A DNA stretch of 63,439 nucleotides, the filler included, from Octopus bimaculoides (lineage: Eukaryota), in assembly GCF_001194135.2 (NCBI RefSeq). It is 5 parts of 5 records of this genome, joined end to end, with 100 filler letters (N's around TTAATTAATTAA, not from the genome) between each part and the next. Parts side by side here need not be neighbours in the genome. Positions count along the whole stretch, not along the records: positions 1 to 4,232 come from NC_068991.1; positions 4,333 to 29,102 come from NC_068982.1; positions 29,203 to 50,863 come from NC_068986.1; positions 50,964 to 61,324 come from NC_068989.1; 1 more part is not named here. One strand, written 5' to 3'. The stretch's first letter is position 1, and each line of letters opens with the position of its first letter. Positions 4,089-56,494 of this stretch are shown piece after piece. A model generated the notes under the pieces. That model was not told the origin of the DNA, searched no databases, and saw nothing but the letters and a program-made list of their open reading frames with translations. The translations under genes and the position numbers were made by a program.

Positions 4089-4130
4089 TCCAGAGAATGT
4101 TTCTGAGTCTTTGCTCGTCATCAGTCTGGA
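4089..4130 (-). ncRNA. Type-I hammerhead ribozyme-like motif (variant or degenerate)
   Basis: Minus strand reads UCCAGA-CUGAUGA-C-GAG-CAAAGA-CUC-A-GAAAC-AUUC-UCUGGA. Perfect 6-bp stem I, intact CUGAUGA and GAAA, 3-bp stem II with a C.A mismatch at its base, UUC triplet with no proper 15.2-16.2 pair. Confidence 0.6.
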
Positions 4131-4232
4131 GTAGCATGACCTGCTAGTCGAGATGCCTGTCAAGCTCTTGTAAACATATAAAAATTCTAGTGAAATACAT
4201 TCACTGATTTCAAATATATATATATATATATA

Positions 4233-4332
4233 NNNNNNNNNNNNNNNNNNNNNNNNNNNNNNNNNNNNNNNNNNNNTTAATTAATTAANNNNNNNNNNNN
4301 NNNNNNNNNNNNNNNNNNNNNNNNNNNNNNNN
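4233..4332. other. Assembly linker: 44 N + TTAATTAATTAA + 44 N (100 bp)
   Basis: Identical construct at four places. The palindrome has stops in all six frames, marking an artificial gap of unknown size. Confidence 0.95.
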
Positions 4333-4649
4333 GTGTGTGTGTGTGCGCGCGTATGTGTGTGTGTGTGTGTGTTTTGCTGCTATGTACCATGTTTGTATGT
4401 ATGGGTGCACATCTCCATATGTGTGGACATGTGTCTTTGGGTGAAGTAAAGTGTGTGTGTATATGTGGTCATGTGTTTCAGTCTCTATTTGTGTATGCGG
4501 TTGTCTGTTCATATACCCTATGTACCTACCCGTCTGTATGTAGACCTGTTTGTTTACATATACATACATGTGCATGCACACACACACACATACACCCCCA
4601 CACACATACACCCACACACACAGACATACATACATCTATCTGCATAAAA

Positions 4650-6046
4650 GCCCATTAACTGTTCTACTCTACCTGCGTAAAATGTGGGTATGGGGGTATG
4701 CTATCTATGTATATTTCCTATTTAGTATTGGGGAAGTTTCATTTATAAGGACGTACTCCCGTATTTGTCTTAGAATTGGGTCTTTTGAGTGCGGATGTCA
4801 AGTTGACCCAAGTTGCCTCCATGCTGGTCTTTGGCATGTTGGTAGAGTATGGAGGACTGTTTTTTTGTTATCATATTGTCTCATATGTTCGTTTAGTCGT
4901 TCCGCAATGCTCCTAGATATTTCCCCTATGTATGTCATATTCAGGTCTTTACAAGCACCTTCCATGCATTTTATGCTGTAAACTACATTTCTATTTCTGC
5001 AGTTAATGCCAGGGCTAATCCTACATACCATGCAGTTATTATTGGTACATATGGTATTCTCAAAGGGGGTACGTCCTACATAGTTGTGATCTGATGGAGT
5101 TCCCTGGCTTTTCAACAATCTTAATGTTGAGTTTGGACTCCTTCAGAGCTTTTCTAAACCTACGCGCTAGTTCTCCATGGGCTGTGGCCTCTACAAACAT
5201 CACTCCTTGATATATGTTGGTTTTATACCACGTGTTCGCCCTGTTGGCTTTGTCACAAATTCTTTGTATCATATNNNNNNNNNNNNNNNNNNNNNNNNNN
5301 NNNNNNNNNNNNNNNNNNNNNNNNNNNNNNNNNNNNNNNNNNNNNNNNNNNNNNNNNNNNNNNNNNNNNNNNNNNNNNNNNNNNNNNNNNNNNNNNNNNN
5401 NNNNNNNNNNNNNNNNNNNNNNNNNNNNNNNNNNNNNNNNNNNNNCATATTCCATTCTTTGTTTCTATATCTAGGGCAGGTACCACTGGTATCATTACGT
5501 ATAATATTATCTAACCTCTTTCTAGCTCCCCTGTATACTCGAACCCTATCTTTCTGATCATATCCAGAGAACTGCATGCGGTGCATGGAGTTCTGTGTAT
5601 ATTTTTTCGTTTCATAGGGTTCGCATAGTAGGGAGATGTTGTTCATTATCCTAACTAAGTCTGTTATCAGTATGTTAATTTTCATGCTGTGTGACAAAGC
5701 TGAGTTCTTGTGAACAACATATTTTGAAGCTATGGGTTTCATATAATATGAATGTAGGAGCTGCACTCACGATCTCTAACCAAAGTTCAATATCAAGTAC
5801 AGGGAGCCTATTGTTGGAGTGTTTAGACGGGTAATCTATAGTTACCTTGATACATATCTGCTGTAAAGTAGAAGAGTAGATGACATTAAAAGTAGATGAC
5901 ATTAATATCATAGTTAGGAGCAACTCTAGTGACGGTCGTGTAGACACCGAAAGGAACGTAATGGAGAGCATCCAGCAAATAGCTAACTCCATCCACCAAA
6001 GTATCAAGGTAACTATAGATTACCCGACTAAACACCCCAACAATAG
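4650..6046 (-). mobile_element. Penelope-like retroelement, 5'-truncated and decayed (RT C-terminal part + GIY-YIG endonuclease)
   Basis: Minus frames give IKVTIDYPSKHSNNRLPVLDI, YYMKPIASKYVVHKNSALS and TWYKTNIYQGVMFVEAT, then CMVC...C...VVYSIKC...YIGEISRSIAERLNEH and DPILRQIREYVLINETSPILNRK (GIY-YIG). A VDD-containing segment is inverted at about 5880-6046. Confidence 0.85.
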
Positions 6047-54057: not shown

Positions 54058-54215
54058 AGCGCGGGTGTAGCTGTGTAGTAAGAAACTTGTTCCCGAATCA
54101 CACAGTTTGGGGTTCAGCGCAAATGTGTGACACATTGGGTAAGTGTCTTCTACTATAGCCTCGAGCCGATCAAAGCCTTGTGTGTGGATTTGGTAGAAAG
54201 AAACCAGTCGTAGAT
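54058..54215 (+). mobile_element. Family B SINE head followed by (TA)n
   Basis: GTGTAGCTGTGTAGTAAG...GGGTTCAG...TTGGTAGAAAGAAAC. Confidence 0.75.
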
Positions 54216-55014
54216 ATATATATATATATATATATATATATCCTATTTTCTGCTCCCTCTCACAGAAATAATAGTAATAAAATTTGTAGGTTGTGTTTGG
54301 AAGAAAACTATCGCATAATGAGAATGAATAGAAATTTGGTTAATACTAAGGATGAGAAAGTCGACTGGTGTAAACACATGACCAAATTCCTATTTATCAA
54401 TCTTAAATATTTCTTCATTCTCTCTTGCTTAGATTAGGTTTTGGTGTTTTTTTAAAAATATTTCTATATATTATCTTTTTTTAGGGCATATGATTACTCA
54501 TCATATCTACTTTACATTATTATGCCTTACACTATTTTGGTATTTTTTTTATTTAACATCTCCTTCTAACAATTGCATCACTCACCTTATATAGAGCTAA
54601 CACTTTATCCATCTCTCCTTACACCTTATTTTTTCTCAATATGTCTGTTTTCTTTTTAAAAATTATATCTTTCCTTAGTATATAATATACCCATATTTTT
54701 TGTATTTTATTTTATTAGCTCAATGTGTCCATTTAAATCCCCTCAACACACCCATTCTAACTATTAATGGTTTATGTTACTTGTCACTATACCTGGTAAT
54801 TAAATATATTTTACTGCTGATATATGCAAACAAGTATGCACATATAGAACTTCTTGGTGTCCTGTATGTCTACAACTATGTGTGCATATCTAGGTATGGA
54901 TCTTATATCATCTGTGTGTGTATATCTATTATTTTGTGTTTATTTACTATATGTTGCCATTAACATGTATCTTTTAATATGAACGTGTGTATCTGCGTAT
55001 ATACGTATGTTTCG

Positions 55015-55084
<70 letters not shown>

Positions 55085-56378
55085 NNNNNNNNNNNNNNNN
55101 NNNNNNNNNNNNNNNNNNNNNNNNNNNNNNNNNNNNNNNNNNNNNNNNNNNNNNNNNNNNNNNNNNNNNNNNNNNNNNNNNNNNNNNNNNNNNNNNNNNN
55201 NNNNNNNNNNNNNNNNNNNNNNNNNNNNNNNNNNNNNNNNNNNNNNNNNNNNNNNNNNNNNNNNNNNNNNNNNNNNNNNNNNNNNNNNNNNNNNNNNNNN
55301 NNNNATATATATTTGTACGGTGTGTCTTCTTTTATGTATACCCTAATAAAAAAAACACAACTACAGTTCCTATATCTATGAATACTAATGGGCAATTATG
55401 CCTGTACTCACGTATGAGTAAATATATACAAACACTTTTTTCCTTGAAACATTTTTTCTCTGACATTATGTATAAATTTTTTGTATACTTATATGCACCC
55501 CCATACCCGTACCTTTTCTTATATTTTTAATACACAATACTCTTCTATTACTTGACTATTAATACTACCCTAATACCATTAAATATCCCAGTTACATTAT
55601 GCCAAGCTAGTTCCTTTACCTAATTTTTTAAATTTATACTAAAATATAGTTACTTTATAACCTTACATATCAATACATATAAAATCGACCTTTATTTACT
55701 ATTTCATTCCCACCTCATTTACCTCCCCTACATTCTTTTATCTTTCCGTATTCCAGCATCCATTAGTTATTTCAACTTCACTTTTTTCATCTTTATAGCC
55801 ACAGCAAGTATTTACTATCTAAATTGTAATAACAACTATTTTTTTTTTCTGTTTTTACTTATTTTCTACCTTATATTTAATACATTCTAACGAATGTTCG
55901 TTCTTATGCAAACGTAAGCCCATCTTAGGTATCTTATTCACTCACTCTTTAACACTTTTTTACCTCTCTAACACTTGTTTAATTTAACTATATAGTAACT
56001 CCTTATACACTATCTCCTCTAGATTAACTTCATTCTCATGCATTAATTTTTTTTTTAAATATACACCACACTAAGTAATGTTTTTAACTGTCAGGTCATA
56101 TCTTAAATGGACATTTCTATACAATTAGTCATTTCTATACAATTTTTGCCCTACACGACTTATTTGGTGTTAACATTTCTAGTCTTCTTACTCATCTATA
56201 GAGAGAACGTCTCTGAAACCTCTTTTGCTTATATTTTAAAATAACTGTTATAGCCTTCAGTTATATTTAATACCTAACAGGACTCACATCTCTTTTTCTC
56301 ATAACGATAAATATGAATCTCCTGGATTCTATTCTGCTGTTTACTTTCTCAAGTTCGTTGTAAAAATTTTGTTTATAC

Positions 56379-56494
56379 TTCTTGCACTGAAGAGTACATT
56401 GATATATAATTTATTCAGTTAATTTAATTTAATTCAACTCAATCATGAATTTGCATTATTTTATATCTATGTACGAAACGATATTCTGCATGAA
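56379..56494 (+). ncRNA. Type-I hammerhead-like motif with long stem II
   Basis: UUC.U.UGCA-CUGAAGA-GUACAU.U.GAUAUA...UAUAUC.U.AUGUAC-GAAAC-GAUA-UUC-UGCA.U.GAA. 7-bp stem I and 12-bp stem II, each with one U.U mismatch; stem III imperfect. Confidence 0.65.

Follow-up and report, generated by a model that had tools for sequence, protein, structure and literature searches.

We analysed a 63,439-nucleotide (nt) stretch of the Octopus bimaculoides genome (hereafter, the window) for type-I hammerhead ribozyme motifs and for their relation to Penelope-like elements (PLEs). The window has a GC content of 33% and contains 6,893 N and 56,546 called bases, with abundant microsatellites. Seven hammerhead motifs were found in total, six with a U-H cleavage site and one, 34510(+), without it. 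The window also carries a truncated PLE and inverted partial copies of three of the motif-bearing elements (Table 1). Motifs are named here by their first position and strand.

Table 1. Hammerhead motifs, candidate remnants, associated repeats and PLE pieces in the window (core, position label of the CUGANGA box)
Feature	Positions	Strand	Core	Description
Motif 1, type-I hammerhead	4089-4130	-	4124	6-bp stem I; 3-bp stem II with C.A mismatch at its base; broken stem III; UUC site at 4095
Motif 2, type-I hammerhead	9351-9406	-	9402	Strict level; palindromic stem III ACCGGU; GUC site at 9355; N gap in place of upstream flank
Additional type-I hammerhead	30691-30779	-	30773	6-bp stem I; stem II of 58 nt with U.U mismatch at its base; stem III an 8-nt palindrome; GUA site at 30697; z -2.7
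Motif 3, decayed hammerhead	34510-34554	+	34516	6-bp stem I; 4-bp stem II with C.A mismatch at its base; AA in place of U-H; loose level only
Motif 4, type-I hammerhead	37452-37512	+	37457	9-nt stem III ACUC-G-GAGU; GUU site at 37507; bulged stem I
Motif 5, type-I hammerhead, best kept	49281-49349	-	49344	Strict level; 6-bp stem I; AT-rich stem II of 41 nt; palindrome ACGCGU; GUC site at 49287; z -2.5
Motif 6, type-I hammerhead	56383-56490	+	56387	4-bp stem I with further distal pairs; AT-rich stem II of 81 nt; broken stem III; UUC site at 56486
Candidate remnant	35605-35657	+		Hammerhead-like outline on folding; both core boxes altered; unproven
Candidate remnant	48598-48650	+		Hairpin in high-copy repeat; core CUGUUGA; stem I open; unsupported as hammerhead
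PLE, 5'-truncated and frameshifted	4705-5853	-		Reverse transcriptase end with thumb, then CX4CX2C linker and GIY-YIG endonuclease at the C-terminus
Inverted 5' piece of the same PLE	5860-6046	+		Reverse transcriptase VDD region; 46-nt overlap with forward copy
Inverted partial copy of 34510 element	33970-34074	-		3' half of hammerhead and tail, ~70% alike; GUA triplet kept; score 69
Dispersed SINE-like repeat	34087-34300			Several window copies; inserted at inversion junction of 34510 locus; 11-nt duplication at 34072 and 34303
Possible 332-nt unit	34304-34690	+		34304-34358 (55 nt) recurs at 34636-34690, flanking motif 34510(+)
Inverted partial copy of 37452 element	37334-37385	-		42/47 aligned letters alike; score 36 in inverted-copy background test
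Forward 5'-truncated copy of multi-copy family	49202-49503	-		Carries motif 49281(-)
Inverted partial copy of 49281 element	49512-49585	+		71/74 letters alike to 49355-49428

An initial annotation of the window had reported six hammerhead motifs at coordinates that proved correct, the last of them, 56383(+) here, being listed from 56379. Five of the six passed the mid level of our descriptor, which called for a stem I of at least 4 pairs, a stem II of at least 3 pairs and a U-H site; 34510(+) did not, since it has AA at the U-H position, and 30691(-) had been overlooked. At the loose level the U-H site was not required. These rules were drawn up after the candidates had been seen. Two sets of 300 dinucleotide shuffles served as a null, one shuffled within 300-nt blocks and the other across whole segments. 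The bare CUGANGA heptamer was not enriched, with 26 occurrences on both strands compared with a shuffle mean of 22.5-23.2. A complete type-I hammerhead was formed around 6 of the 26 cores at the mid level (shuffle mean 0.17, maximum 2) and around two, 9351(-) and 49281(-), at the strict level (mean 0.02, maximum 1). The loose level gave 8 of 26 (mean 0.6, maximum 4), and the loose level with a stem I of at least 5 pairs gave 6 of 26 (mean 0.27-0.29, maximum 3). All four levels were above the maximum of the 600 shuffles, so that the comparison with dinucleotide-shuffled sequence named in the initial annotation came out on the side of an excess. The motif set is real and its excess is beyond chance.

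Several results would by themselves favor chance matches in AT-rich repetitive DNA. The core heptamer is at background level and the descriptor was fixed after viewing the candidates. The folding z-scores of the seven motifs are modest (-0.7 to -2.7), and a scan allowing two core mismatches gave no excess (5 matches, with a mean of 2.9 and a maximum of 8 in 162 shuffles) and recovered two of the seven motifs. Rfam covariance models recovered none of the seven; the whole window gave 132 Rfam matches, 49250-49400 gave 7 and 37400-37560 gave 2, and no hammerhead was among them. Against this stand the descriptor counts at every level, the agreement of fine details with published PLE hammerheads and the retention of the cleavage site in reads of the 49281(-) family. 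Chance is refuted for the set, and we give it virtually no weight as an explanation of the seven motifs. It is still plausible for the single weak cases at 36098(+), 35605(+) and 48598(+). The last two had been annotated initially as weaker remnants and were missed by scans with one or two core mismatches allowed; for 48598(+), the core A was restored in none of the 40 read-difference rows listed. The candidate at 36098(+) was found at the loose level only, with a 105-nt spacer and no U-H, and was treated as chance. The cores at 3953(+), 9862(-), 45150(+) and 63226(-) did not complete the motif.

The order typical of minimal type-I hammerheads of PLEs (CUGANGA, stem II, GAAA, U-H and a closing stem I) is present in six of the seven motifs. 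Stem III is a full palindrome in three motifs (9351(-), 30691(-) and 49281(-)), agrees with one in 8 of 9 letters at 37452(+), and is broken in the remaining three (4089(-), 34510(+) and 56383(+)). At its base, stem II carries a C.A mismatch in 4089(-) and 34510(+) and a U.U mismatch in 30691(-), and the stem II regions of 49281(-), 30691(-) and 56383(+) reach 41, 58 and 81 nt. The motifs resemble the hammerheads that Cervera and de la Pena (2014) described in the pseudo-long terminal repeats (pLTRs) of PLEs in being type-I, with a short stem I, an enlarged stem II, an extra base after A9 and a palindromic stem III, and in belonging to many unrelated families per genome, mostly as solo copies (PMC4209133). 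Unlike those, stem II measures 41-81 nt at three window loci, compared with helices of 7-8 bp there, and the apparent density of one motif per 8-9 kb is above the counts given in that paper.

Closer matches were found in File S2 of Craig et al. 2021 (PMC8557442). The stem III of 9351(-), ACCGGU-C, is that of Chlamys-2, and the ACUC-n-GAGU form at 37452(+) is that of Hydra-2_aMil and Penelope-16_HM. The U.U at the base of stem II in 30691(-) occurs in many Hydra-clade entries, and the C.A in 4089(-) and 34510(+) occurs in PLE-X1_cBra. Further likenesses to Hydra-clade hammerheads are the 9-nt stem III with one central base at 37452(+), the GUU/GUA site, the (TA)n target, which Hydra elements favor, and the inverted truncated copies (PMC8557442). 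The same file includes a PLE hammerhead of Octopus bimaculoides, Hydra-1_oBim, and in a comparison by eye none of the seven motifs had its tabulated helices. Hammerhead variants and an octopus example are thus already in print, and the octopus families described here add to a known class. No octopus-wide hammerhead survey was found in the literature beyond Craig 2021, although octopus counts may sit in supplements.

Two further structures lie close to motifs. At 3953-3995(+), on the strand opposite to 4089(-) and 100-170 nt away from it, a core, a hairpin and a closing helix without GAAA possibly represent a deleted hammerhead. At 37648-37690(+), just past the (TA)n that closes the 37452 element, a hairpin of the form CCGAUGAAGAC...GUC is a possible further remnant.

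The initial annotation had assigned the motifs to different families on the basis of unrelated flanks, and this was borne out. When the flanks were compared, 18 of the 21 motif pairs scored within the shuffle maximum and the other three matched only through (TA)n tracts. The 3' ends of 30691(-) and 56383(+) resemble each other by eye, yet their score was not above shuffles. Self-BLAST of the window found no family common to any two motifs; a general repeat search was dominated by microsatellites and N runs. In O. vulgaris, PLEs make up 6.83% of the assembly and fall into 190 families (PMC13282606 supplement), and with so many families unrelated flanks would be expected. The same share would correspond to ~3.9 kb of PLE in 56,546 called bases; by this cross-species inference, a coding fragment of 1.3 kb and seven ends of 300-400 nt would fit the expected amount.

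Inverted partial copies were found at three of the seven motifs, 34510(+), 37452(+) and 49281(-). Upstream inverted copies scoring at least 55 were present at two of the seven (34510(+) and 49281(-)), compared with 1 of 200 background positions. Inverted truncated copies are a typical structure of PLEs (PMC8557442; PMC3846280). At the 37452 locus, comparison of the inverted copy with 37418-37545(+) shows that precisely the ~82 nt with the hammerhead are missing from it, a stretch flanked by 8-nt direct repeats at 37429 and 37511. A microhomology deletion is the simplest explanation; a mobile hammerhead cassette is a possible alternative. This element is bounded by (TA)n on either side. A (TA)n tract lies within 200 nt of three of the seven motifs, including one ~115 nt behind the core of 30691(-), which is too weak as evidence except at 37452(+).

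The PLE in the window has the same anatomy, a truncated forward copy with an inverted 5' piece. Its GIY-YIG match (E=0.0044) is below the Pfam cut-off, and the closest protein, with 70% identity over 92% of a 102-aa query, is from Octopus bimaculoides (4 matches among 22 candidates). No intact copy with an open reading frame (ORF) between two pLTRs was present in the window. The initial annotation had stated that no motif is attached to a reverse transcriptase ORF. No direct tie was indeed found, but the PLE endonuclease has its stop on the strand of 4089(-), 581 nt before the core of this motif, with microsatellites and N gaps (one at 4233-4332) between them. From its position, 4089(-) appears to be placed where the hammerhead of a PLE would be expected, its link to this fragment being unproven.

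Upstream of 9351(-), a TLNPLCLN stretch at 10059(-) resembles the end of a PLE endonuclease, but tblastn and a hidden Markov model (HMM) built from 153 proteins found nothing there. The surrounding region, 9900-10500(-), possibly contains a heavily decayed PLE endonuclease end (CIFC upstream of TLNPLCLN), followed by the lone core at 9862 and then by motif 9351(-); protein searches were unsupportive.

Sequencing reads were examined for one of the seven families, that of 49281(-), by aligning four of the 24 listed read runs to 48410-50040. In a DNA run labelled as the same species, the element was on up to 24 contigs, with a summed depth of ~59,500 at the element against 30-67 on single listed contigs, a value that marks a repeat and not a copy number. 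The 49281(-) family is dispersed and multi-copy. A second organism's run had zero depth at 49290-49564, with the neighbouring repeats covered. Among the indexed runs listed, no RNA run was marked as containing the stretch. The two RNA runs aligned were unstranded cDNA libraries of which ~6% each was read, a poor test for ends and circles. Both covered 49345-49509 at depths of roughly 100-200. Since only 12 of 1032 and 7 of 859 RNA reads were at least 99% alike to the window stretch, the reads derive mostly from other copies of the family. In the two runs, 242 RNA reads (133 and 109) extended upstream of 49503 with one common sequence, so the inversion point is where the window copy has been truncated. 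The cleavage site was crossed by three loose-end consensus rows; GUC and the stem I arm were kept in all three, and the flank behind differed from the window in two. The helices of the family showed one-sided changes that keep pairing (A-U versus G-U in stem I and a G-U version of the palindrome), and no double compensatory change was seen in its reads.

Next to this element, 49600-50040(+) and 48795-48933(-) are two pieces of one very high-copy repeat that is common to the second organism, and reads join them on opposite strands. The read consensus of this repeat has a CUGAUGA at ~49927 that is lost in the window copy. It contains no clear complete hammerhead; the 'half core' Naiads may be compared (PMC8557442).

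From the excess over shuffles, the inverted copies, the PLE fragment with the same anatomy and the motif details matching PLE hammerheads, we concluded that the seven motifs are probably solo, decaying, 5'-truncated ends (pLTRs) of many different PLE families. The initial annotation had named ordinary pLTR ends of PLEs as the case that would speak against its own proposal, and this case is now the most likely reading; solo copies are normal for PLE hammerheads (PMC4209133). Minimal hammerheads of PLEs are reported in thousands per genome and in many families, mostly as single elements that probably come from truncated PLEs (PMC4209133). In such a process, the reverse transcriptase-endonuclease of each PLE family would copy its element, starting from the ribozyme-bearing end, into AT-rich or (TA)n sites. 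Copying would usually halt after a few hundred bases, often adding an inverted piece, and an early halt would leave a hammerhead without an ORF. In intact elements, two hammerheads in a tandem transcript would pair through the palindromic stem III and then cut, as described for dimer cleavage in tandem transcripts (PMC4209133; review PMC6765202). The lone copies in the window would have no partner, would gather mutations and are probably inert.

Some results weigh against this conclusion. No motif is tied directly to a PLE ORF in the window, and no coding remnant was found beside the other six motifs in a search with 153 relatives of the window's PLE protein, which belong mainly to one clade; a second HMM for coding remnants, resting on 2 of the 153 proteins, was too weak. 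Four of the seven motifs had no inverted copy within 1.5 kb. Only 30 further letters are available upstream of the 49281 copy, and these may not be coding. The PLE share was taken from O. vulgaris. Finally, the 55 nt at 34304-34358 recur 332 nt further on around 34510(+), a spacing of the size of retrozyme monomers.

This last point leads to a reading in which several motifs come from families that are non-autonomous and have no ORF (non-LTR retrozymes or mini-PLEs), whose tandem or circular RNAs of 200-400 nt would be cut by the hammerhead and reinserted in trans by PLE enzymes. Besides the 332-nt spacing, the inverted copy at the 34510 locus ends near the unit boundary, as a multimer template would give, and six motifs have no ORF remnant found near them. 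Type-I hammerheads in non-coding, PLE-related repeats are also what metazoan non-LTR retrozymes contain. Retrozymes occur in mussels (Cervera and de la Pena 2020, PMC7229834), and an origin from PLE pLTRs has been argued for them (Li, Clavereau, Pollet 2026, bioRxiv 10.64898/2026.07.22.740005). The definition of a retrozyme, however, calls for circular RNA, abundant and small, and for head-to-tail units of 170-400 nt that each contain a hammerhead (PMC7229834), and no head-to-tail array with a period of at least 40 was found at any of the seven motifs, with N gaps near 9351(-) and 49281(-) that could hide arrays. A direct repeat surrounds the motif at 34510(+) only, one of seven; it scores 65, a weak value in that 21 of 300 background positions (~7%) reach 60, and its copies are only ~70-75% alike, which suggests that it is old. 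In the 49281(-) reads, no back-running joint at the motif was present among the 15 joints listed, from libraries that may not hold circles. No pile-up of read ends was seen at 49287 in the two ordinary RNA-seq runs, and 41 reads of one run crossed this site uncut, such libraries mapping ends poorly; in a study of an anole PLE, too, no reads were seen to stop at the cleavage site (PMC11167929). We regard this reading as unlikely, and the ~332 nt at 34510(+) are its sole hint of a retrozyme-like unit. The proposal of the initial annotation that the genome hosts several non-autonomous ribozyme families holds in part: minimal type-I hammerheads of unrelated, PLE-tied families are present, and a retrozyme or non-autonomous status is at most a candidate reading, there being no arrays and one direct repeat among seven motifs. 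It is very improbable that the host has retained some copies as functional ribozymes for the processing of overlapping transcripts. The strict descriptor is passed by two motifs, and 30691(-) keeps an 8-nt palindrome and a stable fold, as such a role would lead one to expect; the zero depth over 49281(-) in the second organism's run, which shares the neighbouring repeats, the scarcity of RNA reads nearly identical to the window copy, and the broken stem III of three motifs speak against it.

If the motifs are solo ends of PLEs, the finding matters little, adding octopus families to a known class. Even a retrozyme outcome would be of a known kind, because retrozymes are described and argued to come from PLE pLTRs. 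Penelope expansions in octopus have been reported (PMC8967140; PMC13282606), and 235 Rfam hammerhead matches were published for the giant squid (PMC6962438); since Rfam recovered none of the seven motifs here, such cephalopod counts are probably underestimates. The local density is 6 motifs in 56.5 kb, or 39-231 per Mb (Poisson 95%), and its extrapolation is biased because the window was chosen for its motifs. If the window were typical, octopus genomes could carry one of the densest ribozyme loads among animals, of the order of at least 100,000 recognisable hammerheads in dozens of families, including variants with AT-rich stem II of 40-80 nt. At least one ORF-less family of ~330 nt would then be a cephalopod retrozyme, spread by PLE enzymes in multimeric or circular form, and the 37452 hammerhead would be moving in or out of its element as an 82-nt cassette between short direct repeats. 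This extended picture is speculative, and we would not expect it to hold. If it did, octopus would be a test bed for how retrozymes arise from PLE ends and for whether the hammerheads of PLEs are useful to the element or mere passengers, a question raised by Craig et al. (PMC8557442). In the anole PLE, cleavage was unnecessary for insertion in vitro, and the question of its role was left open (PMC11167929).

The rest of the window contains other repeats. ARAGORN found 0 tRNA genes in it. A decayed non-LTR retrotransposon with reverse transcriptase domains (Pfam RVT_1) lies at 19316-23231(+) and 24449-25158(+), and its 3' end is duplicated (23018-23231 versus 24945-25158, 95%). Fragments similar to long interspersed nuclear elements, presumably of the L1/Tx1 type, were found at 6183-7012(-), 61381-63439(+), 57177-59623(+) and 8003-8482(-), with endonuclease and reverse transcriptase pieces and ORF1-like frames that have zinc-knuckle patterns. 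At 4233-4332, a spacer of 12 nt of TTAA repeats (4277-4288) stands between two runs of 44 N; the pattern recurs at 29103, 50864 and 61325 and is likely an assembly marker. By self-BLAST, at least three dispersed families of short repeats, 70-80% alike, were distinguished, which are probably octopus short interspersed nuclear elements (SINEs). Such short repeats are located at 30106-30590, 34087-34298, 39162-39732, 42102-43429, 44166-44363, 47318-47621, 50253-50568 and 53023-54203.

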